32,000 bases of DNA from Staphylothermus hellenicus DSM 12710 (GTDB lineage: Archaea > Thermoproteota > Thermoprotei_A > Sulfolobales > Desulfurococcaceae), in NCBI RefSeq assembly GCF_000092465.1, contig NC_014205.1, forward strand, positions 90,001 through 122,000, read 5' to 3'. A model generated the notes under the pieces. The model ran no database searches, was not told the origin of the DNA, and saw nothing but the letters and a program-made list of their open reading frames with translations. Numbering within the stretch: the stretch's first letter is position 1; the number at the start of each line of letters is the position of its first letter. Below, in pieces: positions 1,455 through 17,117 of this stretch. Position numbers and translations under genes: made by a program.

Positions 1455-1566
1455 GGCCCGGGTAGCTCAGCCGGTAGAGCGCCGGGCTGTGGACAAAAAC
1501 CCCAATGATAAAAGAGGGGAAAAGGCAGAAACCCGGAGGTCCCGGGTTCAAATCCCGGCCCGGGCC
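1455..1566 (+). tRNA. tRNA-His (GUG) with encoded G-1 and a 38-nt intron at the canonical 37/38 position (about 1493-1530)
   Basis: Acceptor GCCCGGG/CCCGGGC, D arm GCTC-AGCCGGTA-GAGC, anticodon stem CCGGG/CCCGG with loop CTGTGGA, T arm CCGGG-TTCAAAT-CCCGG. The extra 5' G at 1455 faces discriminator C. No encoded CCA. Confidence 0.9.
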
Positions 1567-2060: not shown

Positions 2061-3134
2061 GTGAGATTTTATTTAGGCTTTGGCTTTGTCTATTATTTGG
2101 AGGGGTGTTTTGTTTTGTCTAAGCAACTTGAGGTTGAGCCTGAGTTTGCTGAGAAGATTAGTAGTGATGATCTGGGATGGCTTCTTGAAAAACTAGCTGA
2201 TCGTGTTGAGAAGGAGATTGTGTTGATTGCTAAGAACCCTAATTTGTATAGGCGTATTGAGCGTATTGTGTTCACTCTTCCAACCCGCCATATAATATAT
2301 CATGGGGACTCCCGCAACCTATCCTTTATTCCTAGTGAAAGCGTTCACCTTGTAGTTAATTCTCCACCGTACTGGATTGTTAAGAAGTATAAGCCTATAC
2401 CTGGTCAATTAGGTGTTATAAAAGATTATAATAAATTTCTAGAGGAGCTTGGGAAGGTTTGGCGCGAGGTTTACCGTGTACTCGTTCCCGGTGGTAGGTT
2501 GATAATTGTTGTCGGTGATGTATTGCTTCCCCGCAGAAAATATGGTAGGCACAGAGTTATACCATTACACTCCGACATTATTAAGCAGTGTACAAGTATT
2601 GGATTCGAATATTTAGCACCTATAATATGGTTTAAGATCGGCAATGTTAGTAGAGAAGTCCCCGGTAGAAGCGGTTTCCTAGGTAAACCCTATATGCCGA
2701 ACGCGGTTATCAAGAACGATATCGAGTATATATTAATGTTTAGGAAGCCTGGCTACCGCAGTGTTTCACGTGTGAGAATGAAGCTAAGCGTTATACCTGA
2801 GAAATTGTTTAAAGAATGGTTTACACAGATATGGCGATTACTAGGTGAGTCCACAAAACATCATCCAGCACCATTCCCATTAGAGCTGGCTGAGAGGCTT
2901 ATACGTATGTATAGCTACGTATACGATACCGTCCTAGACCCATTCATGGGAACAGGGACGACATTATTAGCAGCAGCTAGAACTGGGAGGAACAGTATTG
3001 GTGTAGAAATAGATCCTGAATATGTTAAGTATGCATATAATAGGCTTAGAAAAGAAGCACAATCTCTATTTGGAAAACGAGAAATAATATTGAAAGAGAT
3101 GAGCAATGAACAATCCTATCAAGGAATGGGTTGA
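2061..3134 (+). CDS. DNA methyltransferase, beta-class N4/N6 family (PF01555-like); the SPPY motif suggests N4-cytosine
   Basis: Motif IV VVNSPPYW lies upstream of motif I DPFMGTGTTLLAAARTGRNSIGVEID, which is the permuted beta-class order. The start is uncertain: GTG 2061, or TTG 2097 or 2115. Confidence 0.85.
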   Translation: MRFYLGFGFVYYLEGCFVLSKQLEVEPEFAEKISSDDLGWLLEKLADRVEKEIVLIAKNPNLYRRIERIVFTLPTRHIIYHGDSRNLSFIPSESVHLVVNSPPYWIVKKYKPIPGQLGVIKDYNKFLEELGKVWREVYRVLVPGGRLIIVVGDVLLPRRKYGRHRVIPLHSDIIKQCTSIGFEYLAPIIWFKIGNVSREVPGRSGFLGKPYMPNAVIKNDIEYILMFRKPGYRSVSRVRMKLSVIPEKLFKEWFTQIWRLLGESTKHHPAPFPLELAERLIRMYSYVYDTVLDPFMGTGTTLLAAARTGRNSIGVEIDPEYVKYAYNRLRKEAQSLFGKREIILKEMSNEQSYQGMG

Positions 3135-3855
3135 ACTAAATAAAGTCATTGTTAATAAGAAGTTATATTTTAAAGATATAGAAGACAGACTCATAGATAT
3201 TATTTGGAGACTTGACAAGTTGTGGAGGAATGAATTAATAGAGCAGGGAGAATACCGGCAGAAGGGAAACTATTATCGAGACACCATAATATCCCTTATA
3301 AAGGCGTGTTGCTTAGAGGAAGGCTTTAGGATAGAGATAAGAGAGGCTAGGCTTGAGGGTCGGACAGACAAGGTCCATAAGGTTGATTTCGCATATATAG
3401 GTAGGAATAATGTCCCAATTATTGCCGGCGAAGTTAAAGCGATCGGTAGCCCGCCACACAGAATAGGGGGTAGAACATATCCTGAGAGAAACATTAGTAT
3501 TGATACTGATAAGAGGATTAAGGAGGTAAAATATACACCAATAGATCTTAAGAGGAAATATGATCCGCTTGTCTCAAAACCTTGGAATCAATGGATTGAT
3601 GAAACACCACCAAAATTCTATACATTCTGGCTCCTAAGACTAGGCTCCTCAAACAGGCTAAACCACATACTCGAAAAAATAAGAGGTTTGAAAGAATACA
3701 ATAATGGAGTATCAGCAATCATATATACAGAAAGCAGGAGAGGCTATAGATGGGTCTTCATGAAAGACAATATTATTCGAGGAGTAGATGAGCTAACGCA
3801 GGAAATAGCGCAAGAAATAATACGCTCAATCAAAAGCAGGCCCTACATTATTTAG
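3106..3855 (+). CDS. putative type II restriction endonuclease (PD-(D/E)xK) partnered with the upstream methyltransferase
   Basis: ATG overlaps the MTase 3' end by 29 nt. The segment KVDFAYIGRNNVPIIAGEVKA gives a D-x15-E-x-K nuclease signature. No other recognisable domain. Confidence 0.6.
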   Translation: MNNPIKEWVELNKVIVNKKLYFKDIEDRLIDIIWRLDKLWRNELIEQGEYRQKGNYYRDTIISLIKACCLEEGFRIEIREARLEGRTDKVHKVDFAYIGRNNVPIIAGEVKAIGSPPHRIGGRTYPERNISIDTDKRIKEVKYTPIDLKRKYDPLVSKPWNQWIDETPPKFYTFWLLRLGSSNRLNHILEKIRGLKEYNNGVSAIIYTESRRGYRWVFMKDNIIRGVDELTQEIAQEIIRSIKSRPYII

Positions 3856-4374
3856 CACTACTTTATCAGTATTGATTAATGCTTCAGTTTCATATTGAGC
3901 ATCAGGAATACGTGAATAGCTTAATGTATCTGATTAAAGCATACTCAATTAGTATCTGTACTGTTTCTCCTCATTTCATAGAAATATTATTCCTTCAACA
4001 TTACCATAGGTCCTTTAAACACTTCCTGTACATCATCAAAGACCTTATTGCCTCAAGCTAATGAGACTGGGCGAACAAGTGCTTTCACAACCCCTCAAAC
4101 GCTCTCACCATACAGTTGAGAATACTATACACAGTGTTGGCAATTATAGCTATTGCGATCATGGTATTAGTGGTTGTTGCTGCAGCAAGGAGGGGAGAGC
4201 TAGACAGTTCTAGCATGTTTATATCTAGGAACTCCTCAACACGATGTATTTTTCCTTTATCTAAAATAAATCAATACTTTATCCGGAATGCCTTTTTATT
4301 CAAATACTAGTAAGTGGAATTAAGAATATAGATTTATGTTATAGACATTGTTATATAATACTAGTGTGGGGACC

Positions 4375-5622
4375 ATGCATCTGAGCCTTGATAATCTCAG
4401 GTCTTTTCTTGTAGATGTTGGTAGGCTCTATAACATAACTTCAGCTATCAAGGATTATTATGATGAAGTTGTTAGGCCGTTAAATGGAAAGAATATAGAT
4501 GAGCTGCCTAGAGATCTCAAAGTTGCTGTTCTAGGAGGACTGAAACCTGATGGTGAATATGTTGATAACGCCTATGCTATGTTTATCAAGGACTTCATAG
4601 GATTATATATCGAGGATCCAAAACTTTATGTATTTATGCTAAAACGTGGAAGAATACCTAGTGTTAAAATAATTACTAGTGCAACCAAATTCGTAGAATT
4701 CGTTTATTTATTAAATGGGGTATCCGGGTTTATAATAAGTAAAGCGAGAAATCTAGGTCTGATTCATAATAGTGTGAAATCTAGTAAAACTGAGATTAAT
4801 CAATTAAATATTGAGGACGCTATAACTGAGTTAATAAATACAATATTAAATTTAAGTGTTGGTACGAATTCTTTTACTACCGGTATTTGGGGGCTTAGAA
4901 AAACAACTCTGCGATATGCAAAGAAAGCATATGGAAAATTGCCTGAGAATCTATTAGAAGTATTAGGATTTTCAAAGCTGGTAGATTTGAAAAATTACCA
5001 GTTATGGGGGTTTCCAGATTATGTTACAAAATGCAGATTATATCAATACGAATACAATGAATATGGTCTAATTATAAATGGACTGCCTATTGTATCTGAG
5101 TATTTAAGGAAGATCCCTGGTTTAAGTTCTATAGCTTTAAATACTTTAGGAGGAGCTATTTGTATTCTAAATGAGGTTATTTGGAGATATATTGATCTAT
5201 TATATAAGGATTTAAATAAATGGTACAAGAACAGCATTAACTTGGAGAAAGAATATGTGAGAAAAGCATGGAGATCGCTTGACGAGATCGGATGGAGCAT
5301 GCCAGAATATTTAAAGTCTTTGTATGTTGACTTTCGTGAAGCACTGGATGGTCGAGTTGGCTCGTCTTACGGCTCGCCATTTAAGTTTTTACACTATGAT
5401 GAGAATGGTGTAATAAAGGAGTATACTCAGTGGTTTTATCGTGGTAGTTATGAACGTAGCGGATTCTATACATATAAACTATCACAGTATATTTATCTTC
5501 CAGAATTACTCGATGACTTAATGCCTGCAATTTATCTAGGCGTGGTTGATACTACATTATATCTAAATAGTGGAAGAGCTCTTCTCATACTTATTAGAAG
5601 TCCCTCGAGGGAAAAACTATGA
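4375..5622 (+). CDS. hypothetical protein (about 415 aa), first gene of a three-gene operon
   Basis: Long ORF. ATG 4375 lies about 20 nt downstream of the TATA-like ttatataat (alternative TTG start at 4348). Aromatic-rich, with no motif I recognise. The stop overlaps the next start (ATGA at 5619-5622). Confidence 0.6.
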   Translation: MHLSLDNLRSFLVDVGRLYNITSAIKDYYDEVVRPLNGKNIDELPRDLKVAVLGGLKPDGEYVDNAYAMFIKDFIGLYIEDPKLYVFMLKRGRIPSVKIITSATKFVEFVYLLNGVSGFIISKARNLGLIHNSVKSSKTEINQLNIEDAITELINTILNLSVGTNSFTTGIWGLRKTTLRYAKKAYGKLPENLLEVLGFSKLVDLKNYQLWGFPDYVTKCRLYQYEYNEYGLIINGLPIVSEYLRKIPGLSSIALNTLGGAICILNEVIWRYIDLLYKDLNKWYKNSINLEKEYVRKAWRSLDEIGWSMPEYLKSLYVDFREALDGRVGSSYGSPFKFLHYDENGVIKEYTQWFYRGSYERSGFYTYKLSQYIYLPELLDDLMPAIYLGVVDTTLYLNSGRALLILIRSPSREKL

Positions 5623-6245
5623 CAAAGTCTGATGAAGCCTCTATTAAAGAAGAGTTTAAAAAATTAATTAAAGCAATTTATACACTACTCCCATCTAGGA
5701 ATAAGGTATCACAATTAATAATGTTATTGCCTTTAAAAGAAGAGGTTATCCAAGACTTATACCCCGAACTTTTCGAAGATATCGAGTATTGGGAGATGTT
5801 CAACTCTGCACTAGGATTGTACAGAAGTTCAGAGGGAAAAATTCATGCCTCTGGCTTAGCGGATGCACTCAAGGACTTCATTAACAGAATATTTCAGATA
5901 CTTCGGGATGAAAAGTATAGAGCCGCTATCTCCGCTTTACTCGGAGAAATATCGCCTAATCCGGAGCGTGAGTGGTTAGAGGTAAGGATAAAGGCTGTTC
6001 TGAAAGATCCATCAATAGGTTCTGCTGCCAAGAAAGTTTTAATGCTACTAGTTGAAACCCGTAGCGCTAGTACCAAAGAGCTTCCTAGCAAGTTAAATAT
6101 TGATGAGCAGGAGTTACAACATACTATTTACGCATTGAAAAATCTCAAATTAGTCGAGATTAATGGCGAAACTATTTCTTTACCATATGATATTCGGGAA
6201 AGATATACTTTATACGTTAAGAAACTGCTTGAGGAAAGTAGATAA
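5619..6245 (+). CDS. hypothetical helical protein with C-terminal winged-helix-like domain
   Basis: C-terminal segment KKVLMLLVETRSASTKELPSKLNIDEQELQHTIYALKNLKLVEINGETISL has an HTH-plus-wing pattern. The gene is translationally coupled on both sides. Confidence 0.6.
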   Translation: MTKSDEASIKEEFKKLIKAIYTLLPSRNKVSQLIMLLPLKEEVIQDLYPELFEDIEYWEMFNSALGLYRSSEGKIHASGLADALKDFINRIFQILRDEKYRAAISALLGEISPNPEREWLEVRIKAVLKDPSIGSAAKKVLMLLVETRSASTKELPSKLNIDEQELQHTIYALKNLKLVEINGETISLPYDIRERYTLYVKKLLEESR

Positions 6246-8284
6246 TGGGGAAAGATATAGGCTCTAAACTAGGAAGAGGACGGAAGCATATACACATAGA
6301 CCTTGGAGAGGCAACTATCTCAGAACATAAGAGGGTTGTAAAGGAGGATCTAAAGAAGACAGGAATTGGTTTAGAAAAAGAGGCGGAAGCCAAGGATACG
6401 GGTACAGCGACTAGATCTACTAGACCCCGCATACCTAGACCTCCAATTATACGTTCCGAGCCTGTATCTCCTAGTGTTAAAACTGAGCCTCAAGTAATAT
6501 TTCCAAAAGTAACATTAAGCGGAAAACAGAAGGCTATTCTATATATACTCTATCATTTATTTAGAGAAAAGAATTTTAAAGATGCATTATCTCGGATGAA
6601 TAGTGTTCTGGAATATGAACCTGAGGACATACTCCATAATATAATATACTTGGAAAATCAAAATCTTATAAAAATAGATGCTGATAAAATAGTATTTACA
6701 GATAAGGGCGAAATATTGGCAAGGAGTATAGCTGTTGATAATAGCATAATTAACAAAATAAAAGAACTAAAATATAAAATACCTGAGGCTTCTTCGATTG
6801 CAATACCACAGATTATTAGAAAAACATTAGATAAACATATTTATCAAATATCTCCTGAAATTCTTAGAGAAGAATTAATTGTGCCAACTATTCCAAAAAT
6901 TCAGCTCAGCACATTAATTCTCTCAACGATAAACAAGAACATAACTAGTATCTTTATTAGCACCTCTATTTATAAGGATAAAAACATTGTTATACCACAT
7001 ATTCCCCGGATAACCTATGGAAAAATAGCTACCATTTCCATGAATAAAAATATTCCTCCTTTAAACCATGAGGTTGAGAAGAAATCACTTGTTAAAACTA
7101 TTGAAAAAGCTAAAGAAACTGTTAGAGTAAAGAAATGGCGCTTACCCCCCTCTTTGCTTACGATGCTGTTTAAACCTATTAAGAAATATAATGTTAAGGG
7201 ATTGATCTCTGTAAAACCAGATAGACCAGTAATAATTGTGGCAATTAAATCTCCGGATGAAGAATATATCTTTACTCTTCTATCAATTCTTCGTGAAATT
7301 TATCGTATGAAGGTGGGAGGGCTGCCTCTCAGTAGATATGTGAGCGCTAAGAGAACAAAGTATATTGCCGAAGAAGAAATGATGCGGCAAGGACTTATTA
7401 AGGTAATAGATGATTCAACTGCTGATTTTCTGGAATTTTTCGGAATAAGTAAAATAAAGGATTTCGACAAGATAAACCTAGATAGTCTAAAAGATAGATT
7501 AATCGAGCTCTCCGTAGGAGGGCTGAGCTTTTTAATATTCTATATTGATGAGAACAAGAAAGATCAGCTCCTCGGATATTTGTTATCTATAAGGGATAGG
7601 ATAGCTCCTGCAAAAATAATTATAGTACAGCCTCGCAAATTAAATAGTGAATTGAAAAGAGAATTAGCACGAGCATCTTGGGGCTTCGTTGATCCCTCAG
7701 AACCCCTATTAAAGGATACTCTGGATAAAAATTTCAGGCTCAGAGAAGAAGAATTCTATAACAAACTGGAGAATATAGCTACTAAGCAGGAATATGCAGA
7801 ACTTGTTAGAGAGAGTGTGGAAGACGAGGAGGGTCTGGAGAGTTTTGAGAGCCCATTACATTACCAGTTAAAGGTGTTTGTTGTTTACTATCTTATGAAA
7901 AAATTAAAGATTCCAGAAGAAGATATAGAGACTGAAGCTGAAGTAGTTAAAGGAGTTATACCAGATATATACGTCAAATCAAAAAGGTTAGCGATAGAAA
8001 TCGAGACCTTTTATGGGACTGGGCTATCTCCTTGGAGAAAGCTTGAAAGAACCATAGAGAAGTATAAGAAGAATAATGTAACAAATGAAGTATGGATCAT
8101 AATACCTCCCCTACAGACAATGCTATACTTAAAAGATTTAATACACAAAGTTAAGAGGCTAAAAGAAAAGGGATATGGTTTCATAAAATTATACACTGTT
8201 AATATATCTAAAAAGAAGCTTATACCTATAAAAGAAATACCTGTAAAACTAAGTAGATTATTTTCTAAACAAGCACAAGTATAA
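6245..8284 (+). CDS. multidomain protein: basic disordered N-terminus, wHTH, alpha/beta middle domain without P-loop, C-terminal PD-(D/E)xK (CoiA-like) nuclease domain
   Basis: The start overlaps the upstream stop (TAATG at 6243-6247). wHTH-like segment: KQKAILYILYHLFRE...IIYLENQNLIKIDADKIVFTDKGEILA. Nuclease pattern: ESPLHYQLK (7851), IPDIYV (PD at 7961), LAIEIET (7991), then R..Y and VWIIIP. No GxxxxGK[ST] motif. Confidence 0.65.
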   Translation: MGKDIGSKLGRGRKHIHIDLGEATISEHKRVVKEDLKKTGIGLEKEAEAKDTGTATRSTRPRIPRPPIIRSEPVSPSVKTEPQVIFPKVTLSGKQKAILYILYHLFREKNFKDALSRMNSVLEYEPEDILHNIIYLENQNLIKIDADKIVFTDKGEILARSIAVDNSIINKIKELKYKIPEASSIAIPQIIRKTLDKHIYQISPEILREELIVPTIPKIQLSTLILSTINKNITSIFISTSIYKDKNIVIPHIPRITYGKIATISMNKNIPPLNHEVEKKSLVKTIEKAKETVRVKKWRLPPSLLTMLFKPIKKYNVKGLISVKPDRPVIIVAIKSPDEEYIFTLLSILREIYRMKVGGLPLSRYVSAKRTKYIAEEEMMRQGLIKVIDDSTADFLEFFGISKIKDFDKINLDSLKDRLIELSVGGLSFLIFYIDENKKDQLLGYLLSIRDRIAPAKIIIVQPRKLNSELKRELARASWGFVDPSEPLLKDTLDKNFRLREEEFYNKLENIATKQEYAELVRESVEDEEGLESFESPLHYQLKVFVVYYLMKKLKIPEEDIETEAEVVKGVIPDIYVKSKRLAIEIETFYGTGLSPWRKLERTIEKYKKNNVTNEVWIIIPPLQTMLYLKDLIHKVKRLKEKGYGFIKLYTVNISKKKLIPIKEIPVKLSRLFSKQAQV

Positions 8285-9510
8285 TATTTTCATAGGCTCT
8301 ATAGTTGCTTAATAGTTAAATTAAATGTATTTTCAACAATAATTTGCATCTATTGGACTTGACCCTCTACACCTTAAACACTCGATTTCCATTATCACTA
8401 TTATTTAATTTATTAAGTAGTAATGCAAAGCTAAGGAGAGCATATACTTATTATTCATTACTTCATTAATAAGTCGTTGGTGCTACTACCGGGAAAAGGA
8501 TGGCGATAGCTTGAAAGAAAAGTAAGGGAATAAAGGAGAGATTATTACTAGTTTACTAGAGTAAATACGTTCTTCCACAGTTTTAACATATGATCACCAG
8601 TTTTCCTCTTTTCTTATGTTGAATTTTTCGCTTTGTTTTCCCCTGCTTTAATCATCCATTGGTTTTCACAATCTTTGCGGTGGACATATACTAGTTTTCC
8701 ATTCGCGAATACTAGCTGTACCGCTTTAAATAGTATGTATGCAAGAAAATCATTTGTTTAGCCCTATTCATAATTTTTTGTTTCTATTAGTTCCTCTCCC
8801 TTCTTAGATTTCACTCCAATATTAAGGGACTCTTTGATTAAGAGTTTTCTTCTACAATTACTTATTTAAGTCCATATATGAATAAGCTGTAATGGTAATG
8901 TTTCCCTCTTAGTCTTATCAGCTATATTCACAGATCTGCCACGAATAGGTTATTTTATTCAAAGCACATCTCTATCTAACAGTAGTAGAGAATATGTACT
9001 ATATAGTGATGATCATCTACGTATTTATTTTCTATATCTTTATTATGAATGTTGCTAATGTCCCCAAATATGCAGGTAGGCGTTTAATCTATCTTTCTTC
9101 TTAACAAATTTCATTTCTTCTATGCGATCCCTCCGCTTCACGAATTTATACATTTCCGCCCCATTTCTGATTAGTTCAATGATCTTTATTATCAAATATT
9201 TGAGAAGTATTCTTATCGCACTTCTTATTACTTCTTCAATGAATATATTTATGATTATTTCGTCAAAGCCTAGAGGTATTTGTTGGATAAACATCTTTAT
9301 TCTTTTCATCATTTTTATACACCTTAATTGATAAACATAATACTTATTCCAAATCTTAATAGAAATATTAGACCTTTGAAAAATATAAGGTTAGTTTATT
9401 CTTGATCATTCCGCTAGTGATAGTGATCATGGCTCGTGATAGGTATAGGAATTATATTTTGTTAAAAATTATTAATAGTATTGTTTAAGACATAATTGGC
9501 GTGATTCTCT

Positions 9511-9924
9511 ATGAGTATGGAATATGTTGATTTGCTGCGAAATCGTGCTAAAAGGTATTTGGAGTCGGCGGTGAATAATTTATTGAGTAATAGATTTGAT
9601 GTGGCAATTGTTGAGGCAGAAATAGCTTCTCAGCTTGCTTTGAAGGCTTTAATAGTTAAAATAGGTTTTGAACCTCCTAGAACGCATATGGTTAGACAGT
9701 TATTCTCGTTTATAATAGATAATAAGCTCTTGCCAGATAATATGCTGAATATTGTTAGGAACTATGTTAAAAAGAACCGTGAAAAACTAATAATTCTTGA
9801 AAGAGCTAGGATTGTGGGACAGTATGGAGCATCAATTGTTGATCATGATGAAGCAGAGATAGCAGTAAATACTGCTAAGGAGGTTCTCAGCGTTGTCGAG
9901 AAACTTTGGAAAATGGTTATCTAA
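9511..9924 (+). CDS. HEPN domain protein (toxin-type partner of the MNT)
   Basis: 137-aa helical protein. It has an R-T-H...L segment (PPRTHMVRQLF) in the position of the HEPN catalytic motif. It overlaps a downstream minimal nucleotidyltransferase gene, the classic HEPN-MNT pair. Confidence 0.7.
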   Translation: MSMEYVDLLRNRAKRYLESAVNNLLSNRFDVAIVEAEIASQLALKALIVKIGFEPPRTHMVRQLFSFIIDNKLLPDNMLNIVRNYVKKNREKLIILERARIVGQYGASIVDHDEAEIAVNTAKEVLSVVEKLWKMVI

Positions 9925-10258
9925 AAGAAGACAGGTGTTAAGGAATTGGGATAGCATAGCGAAAACCATAGCATATATTCTAAAAAAGGTTATGCCAGAT
10001 ATTATGGAAATATATGTTTTTGGCAGCGTTGTCGATGGCAAGTTTACAGGTGCAAGTGACCTAGACTTACTAATAGTTATTCCTGAAAAATATGATGAAT
10101 CTAAAACATATATACTATTCAACAAGATACTAGAGGAGAAACTGGGAGAAATAGCATATATGATCGACCTACACATAATCAATAAAAATAAGCTAGCCAA
10201 ACCACCCTATACCTGGTGGCTGAAGAAATCATACAAGATTAATTCTATGAAACACTAG
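9893..10258 (+). CDS. minimal nucleotidyltransferase (MNT) domain protein
   Basis: IYVFGSVVDGKFTGASDLDLLIV matches the GS-x(n)-D-x-D Pol-beta-type NTase signature. The start is ambiguous (TTG 9893 or GTG 9935). Confidence 0.8.
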   Translation: MSRNFGKWLSKRRQVLRNWDSIAKTIAYILKKVMPDIMEIYVFGSVVDGKFTGASDLDLLIVIPEKYDESKTYILFNKILEEKLGEIAYMIDLHIINKNKLAKPPYTWWLKKSYKINSMKH

Positions 10259-10326: not shown

Positions 10327-10713
10327 TTTCCATTCCTCCCCCTGCTGAGAAAGGCTCCGTGGGCTTCAATAGTGAATGTTGCATCTGTAGCGGGCCAGAC
10401 AGGAAATGTGTTTGCATCTGTAGCTTACTGTGCATCAAAGGCTGGAGTTATAGGGCTTACACGTAGACTCGCTGTTGAGCTGGCACCACATATAAGAGTT
10501 AATGCTGTAGCACCAAGTTTTGTTGAAACCGATATGGTGAGGGAATTCGTGGATACACCGGAAAAACGAAAAAGAATCGCCGATCTTCACCCATTAAAAG
10601 ACATAGCTAAACCAGAAGATATTGCCAACGCCATATATTTCCTTGCAACCAAAGAATCAAGATTCATTACTGGACAAATACTTTCAATTAATGGAGGCCG
10701 CTTCACCTGTTAA
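10327..10713 (+). pseudogene. 5'-truncated short-chain dehydrogenase/reductase (FabG-like) remnant
   Basis: Only the C-terminal half is present: SIVNVASVAG, catalytic YCASK (YxxxK), NAVAPSFVETDM, ITGQILSINGG. The frame opens right after a TAG at 10324-10326. The Rossmann TGxxxGxG N-terminus is absent. Confidence 0.7.
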
Positions 10714-11982: not shown

Positions 11983-13395
11983 GTGGTGGAAATGATTGGG
12001 CAAGGTGATGGTTGGTTAGGAAGAAAGATTGCACTCATACTTATTGTGGTTTTAGTGGCTGGGATTGTTGCAGGTGCTCTTAGTTATTACTTGTACTCAC
12101 AGCATAAACAAAAACCAGAAAAAACTACCACTCAACATCCCTACCCATCAACAACTTCTACACAACCTCCAACAACTACTCAAATACCTGGGGATAAAAC
12201 TCCTCCCAGAATCTATTCGATTAATTACGAGTTTTTACCGCCCGATTCTGTTTCGATTACTGTGAATGCTACAGATAATTCTGGAATATCCAAAGTATTA
12301 GCTGAAGTTCAAGGGGAGAATTATTCCCTAGCTTTAGTAGATGGCTTATGTGCTGAAAACATAACAGTTGGAGCGATAAGCGAGATTAAAGAATTGCCTG
12401 TCAAGATTTATGTTTTCGACAAATTCAACAATTATGCAAAAACCAAGTTAACTGCTGTGCCAAACTTGGAGGAAAAATTTGTTAGCCTTGGTATGAGCAA
12501 CAAGATATCTAAGAGTAGTGCAGAAGAGTTTTACTCAGACTATCAGCAGCTAGTCCAGCAGTTATACCCTGAAAACAAGTCCCTGCTAATACCCCTGTTA
12601 AAGCTTTACTCAAAAAATTCCACGATATTTAGCATGTTGTATCAAAGTGTTTCGCAAGATCCTCAACTAAGCAAGTATTCTTGCCTAGAGAAAGATGAAT
12701 TGATATCTTCAGCTTCTCAGCTGTTCTTGGATCTAGGATATACGGGGAAGGTTAAAGTTTTAATTCCTGGAACCAATAATTACAGGGAAGAATTTTTAAC
12801 TAAGCCTACAATACAAGCTTTTGGAAACTATTCTGTTGCAATAGATTCGCTTGGTTTGCCTAAGCATAACAAAAGCACTTTATTCTTGTTGGGAAATGCT
12901 ACCCAGATTAATCCAGCGATAGTTGATTTTGAGCCGGTAATAGTTAAGGACATGAATGGTAAAACTTTTGTTATAAAAAGCAAGAACATAGCAAGAGATG
13001 TCTGGATGATTGCTGAACATTTGAGGCGTACTCCTTACGTTGTTAATTACCCAGAGATGTATGAAGCCTTTAGCATAAAAGTCCAGCAAAACGCTTTTGA
13101 TATTCTAGATAATCCTGAGATGCATGAGTTAGGCGAGCATTATAAACCTACGGATAAAATTATCTGGGAGAAAGTGATTATTCCTCAATGGAAATATTAC
13201 TGGAATTCTACTCCTCAGGCTGGAAATTTGAGCAAGAGGATTTGTGTGTTTCCTTGGTATAATTCTACCTTGCTAAAAGAATGGATTTCGAACAAAACTG
13301 ATAGGAAGATTGCTTTGATGTACTTTTGGGAGTTGTTGCCAAGGGTTGCTGATCTGGATGAATGGCTAACTCACAAAAAAAACAGTCTATCATAA
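11983..13395 (+). CDS. membrane-anchored extracellular protein with Thr/Pro-rich stalk, function unknown
   Basis: N-terminal TM segment KIALILIVVLVAGIVAGALSYYLY, then a TTTQHPYPSTTSTQPPTTTQIPGDKTPP linker and many N-x-S/T sequons. Start is GTG 11983 or ATG 11992. Confidence 0.65.
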   Translation: MVEMIGQGDGWLGRKIALILIVVLVAGIVAGALSYYLYSQHKQKPEKTTTQHPYPSTTSTQPPTTTQIPGDKTPPRIYSINYEFLPPDSVSITVNATDNSGISKVLAEVQGENYSLALVDGLCAENITVGAISEIKELPVKIYVFDKFNNYAKTKLTAVPNLEEKFVSLGMSNKISKSSAEEFYSDYQQLVQQLYPENKSLLIPLLKLYSKNSTIFSMLYQSVSQDPQLSKYSCLEKDELISSASQLFLDLGYTGKVKVLIPGTNNYREEFLTKPTIQAFGNYSVAIDSLGLPKHNKSTLFLLGNATQINPAIVDFEPVIVKDMNGKTFVIKSKNIARDVWMIAEHLRRTPYVVNYPEMYEAFSIKVQQNAFDILDNPEMHELGEHYKPTDKIIWEKVIIPQWKYYWNSTPQAGNLSKRICVFPWYNSTLLKEWISNKTDRKIALMYFWELLPRVADLDEWLTHKKNSLS

Positions 13396-13408
13396 AGGGT
13401 TGGATGCA

Positions 13409-14083
13409 ATGATTTATCAAATCCAGCAAATGCCTAGATTATACAAGGAAGTCATGAGTAAGTACCCAAACGGAAAATTGTATGATAGTGATGTACGTTT
13501 TTGGTACTACTCTTGGCTTGAAGATAGACAGGTTCATGGGTTAGATAGTGCGATTAAACAGTTTGCAGGTGATTTACAGGGTAATTGGACTAACTTGCTT
13601 AAGGATCCAAGCATAATGCTTCAATACAATACTATAGATACTTATCTAACCAAAAACTTCTCTTATTGGGATTTAATAAAATTTATACACGGTTACGGAC
13701 AAAAGTGGGGTGGTGGAGACTCCGAGAAACATTTTCTTTACTATCCAATAGCATTTAAAGCATTCGGTATTCCAATCCATTACTTTACCACATACTATGA
13801 GTTTTACATTAATGCGCCAGCTAGGTATGCTATTTTTTATGAAGGTACGTTTTTTGGTTTACCCGACTCAGTGTTAGAACCATTAAAACAAGGTAAATAC
13901 AATGAAGTATTAATCTTCCCAGGTAATGGTATATCCCCGATAGGCTCTCCGTTGTATGGAATTAAAAAAGACTTAGAGTATGGAGAGCAACACCGTGTAG
14001 AGCCAAACGCAAAATACATAGAAATGTATTTACCGGTAAGAGGCAAGAAGATTTATTTGTTTAAGGAAGGTAAAGAGGGTTGA
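13409..14083 (+). CDS. hypothetical protein, probably co-transcribed with the upstream secreted protein
   Basis: The ORF starts 14 nt after the upstream stop (ATG 13409; the ORF track used TTG 13400). Aromatic-rich, with no recognised motif. Confidence 0.5.
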   Translation: MIYQIQQMPRLYKEVMSKYPNGKLYDSDVRFWYYSWLEDRQVHGLDSAIKQFAGDLQGNWTNLLKDPSIMLQYNTIDTYLTKNFSYWDLIKFIHGYGQKWGGGDSEKHFLYYPIAFKAFGIPIHYFTTYYEFYINAPARYAIFYEGTFFGLPDSVLEPLKQGKYNEVLIFPGNGISPIGSPLYGIKKDLEYGEQHRVEPNAKYIEMYLPVRGKKIYLFKEGKEG

Positions 14084-14523
14084 GCAAAGATATTTTGGAA
14101 GAAATTCAAAATTGATTCAAAAATCATGGGCTTAGTTTCCTTGTTTACTTCTTGATTTTCAACACTACCCCATCCAGGAGGGTCACAAAGATAGGATTTT
14201 CCTCCATAATTTGTAATATTTCCTTTCTCCACACATTTCTTCTCACCAGTTTGAGGTCCATTAGGATCGTCGGTGCAACAATAATCCTTAGCACATTGAC
14301 CGTTATCAGTACAACTCCTATAACATTTACAAGTATAACTACCCGTATCACAATAAGATGCATAAGCTCCACAATTCATTCCAGCACAATTATCATTGTT
14401 TTGACAACAAACTACTCCATTAGGTCCAGTCTTGCCAGCACAGTCTGGGTCTGCACAATCTATAAAGTCACCAAGATCGTCATCATTGCCATTGTCGCAT
14501 ATTTCAGCTGAAGGACAAGTCAA
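14053..14523 (-). CDS. Cys-rich protein with a CxDGxDDD...DCxDPDC-type repeat, possibly a 5'-damaged gene
   Basis: EICDNGNDDDLGDFIDCADPDCAG plus about 20 Cys. The frame stays open upstream to about 14690, but TTG 14523 is the only ATG/GTG/TTG codon in it, and there is no signal peptide. Confidence 0.4.
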   Translation of the reverse strand: MTCPSAEICDNGNDDDLGDFIDCADPDCAGKTGPNGVVCCQNNDNCAGMNCGAYASYCDTGSYTCKCYRSCTDNGQCAKDYCCTDDPNGPQTGEKKCVEKGNITNYGGKSYLCDPPGWGSVENQEVNKETKPMIFESILNFFQNIFAQPSLPSLNK

Positions 14524-14802
14524 GTCTTTTATTTCGCAGTTATTGGTTTCATTGCTTTCTGAAACATCATCGTGAATATTTGCACATACTGTTATTATAT
14601 AGGTTTTTCCTGCAGTGCAGGTCCAACCATAGAAGTATCTGTTGCTCGAAGAGCCTGCTGATAAGCTTGAAATATAATCATAGTCTTTTGATGAGCCATT
14701 GACATATAATCTAGAATAGTTATATCACCGTTTATTCTTACTTTTGTCTAGTAGTACCTTTATATAGTAGTACTATCATATATTCTTCTAAGGGATTATT
14801 GT

Positions 14803-15084
14803 ATGAGTATAGTGAAGGTTACTAGGAAAAGACAGATAACATTGCCTAAGAAAATTTGTGATTCCTTAGGGATTTCTCCCGGTGACTATGTTAGAGTATA
14901 TATTGATGAAAATGGTAAGATCATTGTCGAAAAGGCGTTTAGTATTGATCAATTAGCTGGATCACTTAATCCAAGCCGCCCACTCGAGAATCTAGCGGAA
15001 GACTTAGACGAGGATAGAAAAGTAATAACATTAAAAGAATTGAAAGCGGCGGCTTCTTCTCCAAGGATCTCCCCTGTCTTATAA
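14803..15084 (+). CDS. AbrB/SpoVT-family (VapB/MazE-like) DNA-binding protein
   Basis: MSIVKVTRKRQITLPKKICDSLGISPGDYVRVYIDENGKIIVEKA is a canonical swapped-hairpin AbrB domain, followed by LAGSL. The 3' end is uncertain because it overlaps a convergent ORF. Confidence 0.65.
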   Translation: MSIVKVTRKRQITLPKKICDSLGISPGDYVRVYIDENGKIIVEKAFSIDQLAGSLNPSRPLENLAEDLDEDRKVITLKELKAAASSPRISPVL

Positions 15085-15395
15085 TAGGTAGCAACACTAA
15101 AAGAATTGAAAAAAGTCTCTCCATTTATGCCGAAGATCTCCTCCATAGGTTTCGCAGATATAATCTTTATTGCATCATTCTCAACTCTTATAACAACCCT
15201 ATTCCTTACCGGTTTGGTTAGCCGTAACTTTTTTGCATTTGGTATGTTTGTTATGGCTAGCCTTCCAGCCTTTGGTTTCATTGGCTGGCTTTCGGGGAAC
15301 GGGTGCTCCTCACATCTTTGAATACTTCTAACTCCGTGTCCTTTTAGGCTTAGCTTACCCCACATATCGGGCGCAGGCTTATGTCTCATCATCAA
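14949..15395 (-). CDS. AbrB/SpoVT-like protein (boundaries uncertain; alternative start ATG 15281)
   Basis: AGRLAITNIPNAKKLRLTKPVRNRVVIRVENDAIKIISAKPMEEIFGI resembles an AbrB domain plus the ..eelfG tail. The C-terminal about 45 aa are antisense to the plus-strand AbrB gene and may not be real. Confidence 0.35.
   Translation of the reverse strand: MMMRHKPAPDMWGKLSLKGHGVRSIQRCEEHPFPESQPMKPKAGRLAITNIPNAKKLRLTKPVRNRVVIRVENDAIKIISAKPMEEIFGINGETFFNSFSVATYYKTGEILGEEAAAFNSFNVITFLSSSKSSARFSSGRLGLSDPAN
15027..15158. repeat. diverged 66-nt tandem duplication
   Basis: aacattaaaagaattgaaa (15027-15045) versus aacactaaaagaattgaaa (15093-15111), 18/19 identical. Internal ccaaggatctcccc matches ccgaagatctcctcc at equivalent offsets. 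Confidence 0.6.
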
Positions 15396-15546
15396 AAATT
15401 ATACTAGATAAATATACATAATAGACATTCCCTACGAAGCAGAAACATGCAAATATTACGAAAGTAGCACTACATGTTTCAGCCCCAATGGCTTTACAGA
15501 TCTCGGCAGGTATAACAATTTGCCCCTTTTTACTTACATGAACCAA
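15379..15546 (-). pseudogene. AbrB/SpoVT N-terminal half-domain fragment
   Basis: A TTG-initiated 55-codon ORF, too short for the supplied track. It reads (M)VHVSKKGQIVIPAEICKAIGAE, then loses similarity (TCSATFVIFACFCF...). It ends 17 nt inside the next minus-strand ORF in a different frame. Confidence 0.45.
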
Positions 15547-15944
15547 ATACTCTTTCTTTACTTAAAAATTACTTAAAAATATGTTTTACTTTAAAATCTT
15601 AAGCCATGAGACTTTCTATAAATTATTAAAAATTTACATTTAATGCACCTTTAGTAATAAGCGTAAAAACTTCATAATTATTATGATTATTGTTTTAAGT
15701 AGTCTTTTCCACTATTATTTGCTGAATTAATGTTTTTAACGTATATGATTATGAGTGAATTCATTATATCAGCTAATTAATCATGATAATTGTTTATTCT
15801 TAAAGGGCGTAGAGTTCTTAGTATTTCTCCACTTTGATAAGAATCTGTTATATATTGGATCAATCTATTGCTTTAAGATTTCTTATATGACGTTGAGTTC
15901 AATATGTAAAAATTATTATTACAGTTTTAATCTAGAATAAATAC

Positions 15945-17117
15945 CTAGATGAGTAGACCGAGTGTGAGAAAATAGGTTATACCCATTGTTGCTGGAAGTG
16001 ATATTAGCCATAGAGTAAAGATTCTAGCTAGTAGTTTTAGGTTAACGCTTCGTGTTCCCCTAGAGAATCCTACACCCATTACTCCCCCGACAATAGCCAT
16101 TGATGTTGATACTGGTAGTCCTAGTCTTGAAGCGGCTAGCATTGTTAGTGTTGCTGATAATTGTGCTACATAAGCTGTTGGGGGTGTTAGGGGGGAGATT
16201 TTTTCTCCTATAGTATCTATGATCTTTGATCCCCACATAATAATGCCTGCTGAGAGACCTATTGATGCAACAATAATTGCTATCCACATAGCTGTTAGGG
16301 ATTCCTTTATTCCTAGAGCATATAGTATAGCTGCTAATGGCCCGGCAGAGTTGGCTACATCATTTGATCCGAAGGAGAAAGCCATGGCGGCAGCAACCAT
16401 TATTAATAGTATCCTGGATGCCTCGTGCAGGGGCGAGCCTCCTTCAGCTATTCTTCTTTTCCAGTATAGATATACCATTATCGTTGTTAATGTGCTAATA
16501 GTTACTGTTGTGATTGATGCATAAACTATGCTTGACACATTAATAGTTTTTACCAATATAAGAATTGTGGGGGTTGCAGATGTTATATATGATGAGACTA
16601 TTAAGGAGGTTTTCGCCGGTCTTTTCTCCCTGAATGATCGGCTGAACGCTGGATACAATATATAAGCTATACCTGTTGCTGCGAATGGGACAATTAACCA
16701 TGCAATCATAATCACCAATATTGTTTCCCAGCTTATAAATGAGGAGCCAATTGCCAGGCCGAAACCAATTATGCCACCAATTATTTCTACATGAACACTC
16801 ATAGGCACCTTAAGATATGTGCTGATCAATGTATATATACCAGATGCTATCAATACCGAGATCATTCCCTTAACAACATATGGTGCAGGCATATTGAGAG
16901 TATTAACTATGCCTTTCATCACAGTATTAGTAACGTATATTCCTAAACTAATAGATCCAGCGAAACTAGCTATTGTAGCCATTATTAAGGCTTTCCTAAC
17001 ATCAAGCACTTTTGCACCAACAGCTGTCCCAATAGCGTTGGGGGCATTATTCGATCCATTATTCCATGCAACGAAGAATGCCGCTAAAACCCCTATAATA
17101 AACCATAGTAGGTCCAT
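15945..17117 (-). CDS. inorganic phosphate transporter, PiT (PHO4) family
   Basis: Duplicated signature: WNNGSNNAPNAIGTAVGAKVL and FSFGSNDVANSAGPLAAI. Polytopic membrane protein. Confidence 0.85.
   Translation of the reverse strand: MDLLWFIIGVLAAFFVAWNNGSNNAPNAIGTAVGAKVLDVRKALIMATIASFAGSISLGIYVTNTVMKGIVNTLNMPAPYVVKGMISVLIASGIYTLISTYLKVPMSVHVEIIGGIIGFGLAIGSSFISWETILVIMIAWLIVPFAATGIAYILYPAFSRSFREKRPAKTSLIVSSYITSATPTILILVKTINVSSIVYASITTVTISTLTTIMVYLYWKRRIAEGGSPLHEASRILLIMVAAAMAFSFGSNDVANSAGPLAAILYALGIKESLTAMWIAIIVASIGLSAGIIMWGSKIIDTIGEKISPLTPPTAYVAQLSATLTMLAASRLGLPVSTSMAIVGGVMGVGFSRGTRSVNLKLLARIFTLWLISLPATMGITYFLTLGLLI

Follow-up and report, generated by a model that had tools for sequence, protein, structure and literature searches.

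Small operons of defence islands in which an effector of PD-(D/E)xK type is accompanied by a dedicated partner have been described as HerA-nuclease pairs, among them DUF4297-HerA, with its two-gene ATPase-nuclease anti-phage layout (PMC11291478), and the related Sir2-HerA. In these respects they resemble an operon that we report here from the chromosome of Staphylothermus hellenicus DSM 12710, where it lies in a stretch of 32,000 nucleotides (nt) that was analysed as a whole (contig NC_014205.1, positions 90,001 to 122,000 of the forward strand; hereafter the window). The operon consists of three overlapping open reading frames (ORFs) on one strand (+), named g1, g2 and g3, the products of which correspond, without a single difference, to the database entries ADI31256.1, ADI31257.1 and ADI31258.1, each annotated as "hypothetical protein". 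We propose, at about an even chance, that it is a portable, horizontally mobile nuclease-based immunity module of archaeal defence islands, directed against viruses or plasmids, and the set may be viewed, from its sequences, as a candidate for a new defence system of archaea, Asgard archaea included. Set beside the known systems, the trio is a defence-island nuclease module with two uncharacterised parts, namely g1 and the central domain of g3.

The likeness to DUF4297-HerA extends to Caldisphaeraceae, where a HerA-g1 fusion lies beside an HSDR_N nuclease in a similar ATPase-nuclease two-gene layout. By contrast, the window operon has no ATPase, neither DUF4297 nor Sir2 was reported for g1 or g3 (Pfam, PADLOC), the PADLOC HerA models match only the single fusion protein, and g3 differs by its winged helix-turn-helix (wHTH), repeat-linker and alpha/beta domains. 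With HSDR_N and HSDR_N_2, found in type I restriction R subunits, and with XisH, g3 shares the fold and the motif order (E in strand 1, PD in strand 2, E-x-(K/E) in strand 3), and these families give its only recurrent profile matches (7/16 members) as well as its best nuclease-type fold matches; g3 nevertheless differs from them in scores that stay below thresholds, in having no superfamily 2 (SF2) motor and no HsdM or HsdS in the operon, and in a Glu that replaces Lys. In Shedu SduA and in the CARF nucleases Card1 and Can2, N-terminal sensing or DNA-binding domains control a C-terminal domain of restriction-endonuclease fold. The domain logic of g3 is the same, but neither DUF4263 nor CARF was among the families reported for it, its presumed sensor is a separate and obligate 415-amino-acid (aa) protein, g1, and no cyclic-nucleotide synthase is linked to it. 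CoiA, a competence protein of Firmicutes, belongs with g3 to the PD-(D/E)xK superfamily, whereas the g3 family is archaeal. The original prediction, made from the sequence of this locus, had described the C-terminal domain of g3 as CoiA-type or restriction-endonuclease-like; the second description is supported and the first is not, since the CoiA_nuc family (PF06054) matched 1/16 members (E=0.015) and not the window protein, and g3 has no N-terminal CoiA domain (CoiA_N). Type II toxin-antitoxin and abortive-infection pairs show similarly strict pairing, gene overlap, a potentially toxic nuclease and a location on mobile islands beside toxin-antitoxin pairs (HEPN-MNT), but g1 and g3 are far larger than the classical components and have no homology to known toxin-antitoxin families. 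The profile hidden Markov models (HMMs) of PADLOC-DB v2 assigned g1, g2 and g3 to no named defence system and gave no recurrent match in the g1 superfamily, as had been anticipated from the sequence.

The proposal is carried first by the conservation of the gene pair g1-g3. Many other archaea have homologs of all three proteins, with the gene order preserved, and the operon is therefore not a chance arrangement. A total of 43 loci were fetched, of which 42 contained a g1 relative and one, from Halorussus (L043), a g3-type cassette only; once the window had been counted and duplicates removed, 37 distinct g1-bearing loci were available, and all their ORFs were scored with HMMs of the three families. 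A g3 homolog lay downstream of g1, in the same orientation, in 29 of the 31 distinct loci with enough downstream sequence, one of these partners being found by hhalign alone (E=7.5e-18). Such g1-g3 loci span Desulfurococcaceae, Ignisphaera and Njordarchaeales, and the linkage was retained down to ~23% identity in g1; further confirmations of g3 came from L003 (1e-93), L018 (3e-58) and the Njordarchaeales locus L017 (8e-34, wHTH included). Between g1 and g3, g2 was present in 7 complete loci, or in 10 with three that are cut by contig ends, including Njordarchaeales, and 19 loci had two-gene forms, with g3 there either containing or lacking the wHTH. Because they are present in only part of the g1-g3 loci, g2 and the winged helices are accessory, and the conserved core is g1 together with the repeat-linker, central and nuclease parts of g3. 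The three genes had been expected to be conserved as a unit; this was borne out for the g1-g3 pair (29/31) and not for g2, which was found in about a third of the loci and once after g3. At that locus (L016, 3676-7243) the order is g1, g3 and then a g2-like protein of 200 aa. Elsewhere, g3 is split into two consecutive ORFs (L007/L008, L037 and L039, the latter with g1 split too), which may reflect frameshifts, pseudogenes or assembly errors, and in L011 and L023 a gap of 450-635 nt separates g1 from g3, which may be a decayed g2.

Relatives of g1 and g3 were also found with other partners. In Caldisphaeraceae (L013, 9189-11884; L014), an exception to the g1-g3 rule, the g1 domain forms the C-terminal half of an 898-aa protein (P0225), the N-terminal half of which is a HerA/FtsK-type ATPase (DUF87, E=1.2e-15), and the preceding gene encodes a stand-alone HSDR_N nuclease (E=3.9e-11), with no g3. 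The fusion thus places g1 again beside a nuclease of the same type, now with a motor; in some assemblies its gene is split into 272 + 627 aa. In L015, another exception, an unrelated XRE-HTH protein of 632 aa comes after a distant relative of g1; this HTH_3 protein was considered as a g3 homolog and rejected as not homologous. The megaplasmid of Halorussus pelagicus (NZ_CP035121.1; L043, 6055-10266) encodes a hypothetical protein of 1,403 aa, the last ~400 residues of which are the central-plus-nuclease cassette of g3 (each ~E=1e-24; ESTLHFALK...IPDIQ...FEIETLYGTG) and the first ~1,000 of which are unrelated to g3; no g1-like domain was detectable at that locus. Upstream of it lie proteins of 629 aa and 792 aa without assigned function and an integrase. 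In Ignisphaera aggregans (L001), a 958-aa gene of GHKL (HATPase_c_3)+NOV_C type (13263-16139, +) directly follows g3. Defence systems typically show such shuffling of parts. The window operon had been read as free of P-loops and ATP-independent. A motif scan indeed found the Walker A motif in none of the three proteins, and ATP-independence holds for the window locus but not as a trait of the family, since in relatives its parts come with HerA as a g1 fusion or with a GHKL ATPase whose gene lies after g3.

The second line of evidence is the C-terminal domain of g3. The anatomy of this protein was determined from an alignment of 16 homologs and an AlphaFold (AF2) model, in which confident domains stand within an overall predicted local distance difference test (pLDDT) score of 54. 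The C-terminal domain was modelled in the order alpha-beta-beta-beta-alpha-beta (H537-553, E561-563, E575-577, E582-586, H595-608, E615-620), and its conserved residues occupy the positions expected of a PD-(D/E)xK enzyme, in helix 1 (E535, S536, H539 and K543), strand 1 (E564), strand 2 (P573-D574, with D574 at its beginning) and strand 3 (E585-I-E587), followed by T-x-Y-G-x-G and K599. The motifs E..H...K, PD and ExE-T-x-Y-G-x-G were kept in 27/27 g3-type sequences examined; D574, E585, E587, H539, K543, E564 and K599 were invariant in an 11-sequence alignment that included the most divergent homologs, and the motifs were likewise invariant in the 16 close homologs and present in the Halorussus protein. 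The PD at 7961 and the AIEIET at 7991, singled out in the original prediction, correspond to P573-D574 and A583-T588 and lie in invariant columns, and the putative catalytic H/D/E residues, the conservation of which had been proposed as a check, are invariant among homologs. In line with this, the best Foldseek match of g3 outside the wHTH was to the XisH structures 2okf/2inb (E 0.015-0.02, probability 0.96-0.99, ~128 columns), placed on this domain by inference from domain size. HSDR_N_2 gave weak matches in 7/16 members (residues ~547-611; best E=0.02; scores of 12-15 bits, with the cutoff at 25), and hhalign to a bona fide HSDR_N protein a weak one (E=0.005), in register on E...PD. Membership of the PD-(D/E)xK superfamily is thus supported for the modelled domain, and the nuclease assignment is supported at superfamily level by the fold order, the XisH, HSDR_N_2 and HSDR_N matches and the conserved residues. 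The catalogue of this superfamily lists XisH and HSDR_N/HSDR_N_2 as well as CoiA (PMC3424549). The T-x-Y-G-x-G extension after ExE is a signature specific to the g3 family.

Ahead of this domain, g3 carries several other parts. No Pfam, NCBIfam, PADLOC or PHROGs family was found for the window protein, the best PADLOC score being to WH_III-A (E=0.51). A basic, Pro-rich N-terminus and a wHTH-like segment had nevertheless been noticed in the sequence, and both are in agreement with the model; by Foldseek, the wHTH matched SSo2273, MexR, DtxR and SSV1 F-93 (probability 0.99-1.0) and the MarR type as well; Pfam AAA_assoc_C matched the same region in 9/16 members. The linker of the window protein contains the repeat copies PEASSIAIPQIIRKTLDK, PTIPKIQLSTLILSTINK and PHIPRITYGKIATISMNK, spaced by 34-37 residues. 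The repeat is present in most close homologs (2-3 copies vs 0.2-0.4 expected from shuffles); in divergent homologs, several peptides of the form PK-hydrophobic...hydrophobic-D-K were recognized by eye in the same region, where a minimal pattern was enriched only 2.3-fold. Aligned by hhalign with the HerA-g1 fusion, the g3 profile matched only a linker peptide, at the extreme C-terminus of the fusion (PELPKINFKEVNLIELDKN), and this match was not significant alone. On these sequences, we propose that the linker repeats may be docking peptides for g1. In the central alpha/beta domain, DRP, Y341, R350/E351/R354 and F497 were invariant or nearly so, and neither a Walker A motif nor a conserved acidic catalytic pattern was seen in the alignment; there was no match to PDB sequences, and hhalign revealed no resemblance to the HerA fusion. 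The central domain probably serves in regulation, assembly or oligomerisation. Two other identities were considered for this domain and rejected: a degenerate HerA/P-loop ATPase, for which the Walker-B look-alike FLIFYIDE is not conserved and hhalign to the HerA fusion was negative, and a TOPRIM domain, for which D389/D390 are not invariant in divergent homologs. Neither FYIDE nor VIDD is kept in the divergent homologs.

As for g1, the AF2 model is of mixed alpha/beta type (pLDDT 91.3, predicted TM score 0.91), and Foldseek found no neighbour for it in the PDB (best E=1.7) or among the viral structures of BFVD (best E=0.17). No family was found in Pfam, NCBIfam, PADLOC or PHROGs for g1 itself or for 40 close and 83 distant relatives, in accordance with the earlier statement that this gene has no motif that can be placed. 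A profile search recovered 177 relatives among 1.84e9 cluster representatives, 82 of them at E<=1e-10 and mostly of 360-460 aa. Across the superfamily, only three Gly and one Ala, besides the start Met, are near-invariant, and its alignment has no conserved residue of catalytic type, acidic or otherwise; the short list of near-invariant residues speaks for a sensor or scaffold more than for an enzyme. The named members all belong to the Archaea (Desulfurococcaceae, Ignisphaera aggregans with Igag_0716, Caldisphaeraceae, Njordarchaeales and an unclassified archaeon), genome-level taxonomy being taken from named database entries; a profile search of genome contigs gave one short contig from a metagenome-assembled genome. 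A Wadjet/MukFEB-like organization, with g1 as kleisin and g2 as KITE-like wHTH protein, was rejected, with no SMC or ATPase present and g1 matching no solved structure, kleisins included. The g2 protein, which the module can do without, is helical in its N-terminal part and ends in a winged helix, the latter foreseen in the original prediction and seen here in weak wHTH profile matches (TFIIE_alpha, E=1.2e-4, residues 133-182; DUF2582; TrmB); in PADLOC, it matched only the wHTH portions of the Csa3, CasR and CARF3 models (E ~2e-3). The mean column identity in the g2 family alignment is 67%, with P25-S26-R27-N28 (PSRN) invariant, and the Njordarchaeales homolog (L017) scored E=2.8e-20.

The third line of evidence comes from the surroundings of the g1-g3 loci, which differ at every locus, no two unrelated loci sharing a context, and none of which is viral. 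Variable, defence-rich neighbourhoods, which the original prediction had proposed as a check, were confirmed at loci across unrelated genomes. In Ignisphaera (L001), a Piwi-like gene of 821 aa (6980-9445, -) diverges from g1 and a type IIG enzyme of Eco57I type lies 5 kb beyond the GHKL gene; a type IIG enzyme of MmeI type neighbours the Njordarchaeales locus; in L018 (3257-4487, +), the genes for a DUF7718 protein and for a protein of TIR_2-like type (27.9 bits, cutoff 28) lie upstream, with overlaps between the two and with the start of g1; other neighbours include Mrr_cat in L012, PLDc_2 in L005 and IS200/IS605 elements at some loci. The four-gene operon arrangement of L018 was seen at this locus only. 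None of 18 neighbour proteins checked for recurrence was found again across unrelated loci, so that the module is self-sufficient, with no fixed extra partner; a fixed additional component, be it an ATPase, a methyltransferase, a TIR protein or an Argonaute, was rejected on this count (0/18).

Mechanistically, g3 would be the effector, binding DNA through its winged helix and basic tail, presenting repeated short peptides on a long, disordered linker, and cutting nucleic acid with its HSDR_N/XisH-like C-terminal domain via a D574...E585-x-E587 metal site, while its central alpha/beta domain, non-catalytic, would probably serve in regulation or oligomerisation. Its obligate partner g1 would most likely act as a sensor or regulator, keeping the nuclease silent or directing it until foreign DNA enters, and may dock on the linker peptides of g3; g2 would be an optional winged-helix DNA-binding adaptor or regulator of one sub-lineage. 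The window version has no ATPase, and relatives add a HerA translocase or an adjacent GHKL ATPase gene. More tentatively, and with clearly less confidence, we suggest that g1 might found a new fold family of archaeal immune sensors or regulators, which would partner with a dedicated PD-(D/E)xK nuclease cassette of "EIET-x-YG-x-G" type and several copies of which would be tethered by the g3 linker peptides in an ATP-independent surveillance complex undescribed in bacteria, found in Thermoproteota and Asgard archaea and upgraded with HerA or GHKL in some lineages.

The analysis shows the gene structure, the domain folds, the conserved motifs, the g1-g3 linkage and the variable contexts rich in defence genes and mobile elements. 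That g3 is an active nuclease, that g1 and g3 interact physically, that g1 acts as sensor and that the module serves in defence we infer from comparative genomics and structure prediction, and several results weigh against it. The position of the active-site lysine holds a glutamate (E587), giving a D...ExE variant; the profiles of the nuclease domain found no match among PDB sequences; and the lines of evidence for the nuclease are each marginal (Foldseek E ~0.015; Pfam below gathering thresholds). No homology to a validated defence protein was found in PADLOC-DB v2, and the roles assigned to g1 and to the central domain of g3 are guesses, with no pointer to a ligand or a trigger. The richness in defence genes is purely descriptive; some loci are flanked by housekeeping genes only, as in L011, where 13 nt separate an inositol-1-phosphate synthase gene from the start of g1; and at several loci the module is carried by tRNA/integrase islands, which fits a function for the mobile element as well as defence cargo.

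The glutamate, the profile matches that all stay below curated thresholds and the presence of two wHTH domains (in g2 and g3) would suit a g3 that is a non-catalytic DNA-binding regulator, with its PD-(D/E)xK-like domain used for DNA binding or dimerisation and the operon as a transcription-regulatory unit. We consider this improbable, as neither very divergent homologs nor different architectures show any change in H539, K543, K599 or the acidic residues, which is the pattern of a maintained active site, and as the wHTH and g2 are dispensable in many members and the nuclease-like cassette is not. The ExE variant is, moreover, catalytically active in BamHI. BamHI is listed as an active-site variant of the superfamily (PMC3424549). 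In g3, judging from the conserved columns, the invariant K543 or K599 could take the place of the lysine.

The islands bring in the main rival explanation, already mentioned as element maintenance in the original prediction and suggested by the frequent location of the module on tRNA/integrase islands; we consider it unlikely rather than likely. The module would serve a mobile element, either as an addiction cassette, with g3 as nuclease toxin and g1 as neutraliser, or in the control of excision or integration of tRNA-integrating elements. In L007 (8354-9929), a tRNA-Gly gene is followed by a tyrosine integrase and g1 starts 72 nt after it; in L019 (311-1480), an integrase homologous to that of L007 (32% identity) lies 735 nt upstream of g1; in L003 (1750-3213), a tRNA-Asp gene is followed by an SSV-type integrase and then by the island with g1-g3. 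Phage_integrase was the most recurrent family among 59 newly scanned neighbour ORFs (3/59), an integrase also precedes the Halorussus locus, and in the window the island formed by a restriction-modification (R-M) pair, the trio and a HEPN-MNT pair starts directly downstream of a tRNA gene (1456-1566). The best fold match of g3, XisH, is an excision-controlling factor, known to control excision of the fdxN element, and the strict g1-g3 pairing and the gene overlap would suit a toxin and its neutraliser. Most loci, however, have no integrase within reach and some, such as L011, lie between housekeeping genes; in the window, neither an integrase homolog nor a second copy of the tRNA 3' end (attachment site, att) was found, and no att repeat was found in L007; g1 (415 aa) is far above typical antitoxin size; and since defence systems are commonly cargo of such islands, the adjacency of integrases does not separate this explanation from the immunity module. 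Homologs on mobile genomes were also rare: profile scans of IMG/VR with g1 and g3 and tblastn against INPHARED were empty, PHROGs gave no informative match, and a single homolog, on the haloarchaeal megaplasmid, was found on 72,556 plasmids. The reading as a viral gene, for which matches to viral proteins had been named as a check, was rejected, IMG/VR, INPHARED, BFVD and PHROGs all being negative; for a plasmid gene there was only the single match.

A host DNA transaction was weighed as well, in which a nuclease complex that binds DNA, comparable to the HerA-NurA resection machinery, would take part in repair, recombination or the processing of chromatin. End resection in archaea relies on HerA together with the nuclease NurA (PMC12977600), and the wHTH domains with a nuclease fold, the fusion of g1 to a HerA-family ATPase in one lineage and the loci flanked by housekeeping genes would agree with such a role. 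We nonetheless give it little probability: the distribution is very patchy (S. hellenicus is the only one of the named Staphylothermus species in the matches), synteny is not conserved, copies with split g3 ORFs are consistent with decay or assembly errors, and the g1 model, matching no solved structure, has no NurA-like match. The identification of g1 itself as a NurA-like nuclease, an idea drawn from the HerA fusion, was likewise rejected, in the absence of a PDB Foldseek match and of conserved catalytic-type residues. With a patchy distribution and strictly kept catalytic-type residues, roles in housekeeping repair and in regulation alone are less likely than the mobile immunity module that we favour.

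The coordinates of the operon, of the parts of g3 and of the context features are collected in the table below. The three coupled ORFs had been predicted with overlaps which proved exact, namely ATGA at 5619-5622 (g1/g2) and TAATG at 6243-6247 (g2/g3), and a ribosome-binding motif of GAGG type lies ~10 nt upstream of both internal starts (g2, g3). The true start of g1 is most likely ATG 4375, because the deposited annotation uses it (ADI31256.1 / WP_013142454.1, 415 aa) and the N-termini of homologs align there. The position of TTATATAA suggests, from the sequence, that the leader of g1, the first gene of the operon, is short or absent. A 19-nt direct repeat (6189-6207, GATATTCGGGAAAGATATA; 6241-6259, GATAATGGGGAAAGATATA), with copies 52 nt apart, was also observed; the second copy covers the stop of g2 and the start of g3, and chance is possible.

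Coordinates of the g1-g2-g3 operon, of the parts of the g3 protein and of context features in the window
Feature	Position in the window	Strand	Remarks
g1	4375-5622	+	415 aa from ATG 4375; mechanical ORF 4348-5622, 424 aa from TTG
g2	5619-6245	+	ORF of 208 aa
g3	6245-8284	+	ORF of 679 aa
TATA-like A/T-rich box TTATATAA	4351-4358	+	17-24 nt upstream of the g1 ATG; read from the sequence, putative function
g3 residues 1-87, basic Pro-rich tail	6245-6505	+	Predicted disordered, pLDDT 25-30; poorly conserved in the alignment
g3 residues ~90-170, wHTH	6512-6754	+	pLDDT 79-89
g3 residues ~175-270, disordered linker with three ~34-aa repeats	6767-7054	+	Pattern P-x-x-[PSA]-x-I-x(4-9)-[ILM]-[DN]-K
g3 residues 300-311, nearly invariant peptide (R)LPSSLLTMLFKP	7142-7177	+	Directly before the central domain; alignment columns
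g3 residues ~325-500, central alpha/beta domain with four beta-alpha units	7217-7744	+	pLDDT 55-69
g3 residues 535-679, PD-(D/E)xK-fold nuclease-like domain	7847-8284	+	AF2 pLDDT 80-90
Type II R-M pair (context)	2061-3855	+	Methyltransferase 2061-3134, restriction endonuclease 3106-3855
HEPN-MNT pair (context)	9511-10258	+	HEPN 9511-9924, minimal nucleotidyltransferase 9893-10258
Intron-containing tRNA gene, 111 nt, proximal island edge	1456-1566	+	Rfam tRNA, 61 bits; missed by ARAGORN

The flanking pairs named in the original prediction were recovered by Pfam and PADLOC. The methyltransferase matched Pfam N6_N4_Mtase (5.8e-44) and PADLOC MTase_II (4e-65), the restriction endonuclease PADLOC REase_II (8.4e-29), the HEPN protein Pfam HEPN (4.8e-25), and the minimal nucleotidyltransferase Polbeta and NTP_transf_2 (at ~1e-10). 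Beyond the latter, an ORF of 113 aa (10372-10713, +) resembles the C-terminal fragment of a short-chain dehydrogenase/reductase and may be a truncated gene at the distal edge of the inserted island. The 1.2 kb that follow g3 (8285-9510) contain no ORF >85 aa and have the lowest GC content of the window (~0.31); genes in decay may lie here, or the operon and the HEPN-MNT pair may simply be separated by a long intergenic region.

No publication was found on the three accessions or on Igag_0716, and the 2014 paper on archaeal "dark matter islands" does not contain this locus. Not previously described are g1, with a confident fold yet no relative that could be detected by structure or sequence, the signature of the nuclease cassette, and the repeat linker as a possible multivalent tether. 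The coupling to HerA or GHKL in other lineages hints at a surface for interactions, and the lineages together provide a natural series of forms of one system, some ATP-independent and others driven by a motor. If the module acts instead in addiction or excision control, it would still be informative on the maintenance of archaeal integrative elements. Apart from CRISPR, R-M and Argonaute, little of the immunity of archaea has been mapped, most catalogued systems having been both found and tested in bacteria; a module which is small (2-3 genes) and self-contained, and which extends from Desulfurococcales to Asgard archaea among known defence genes, is therefore a practical candidate for experiments.

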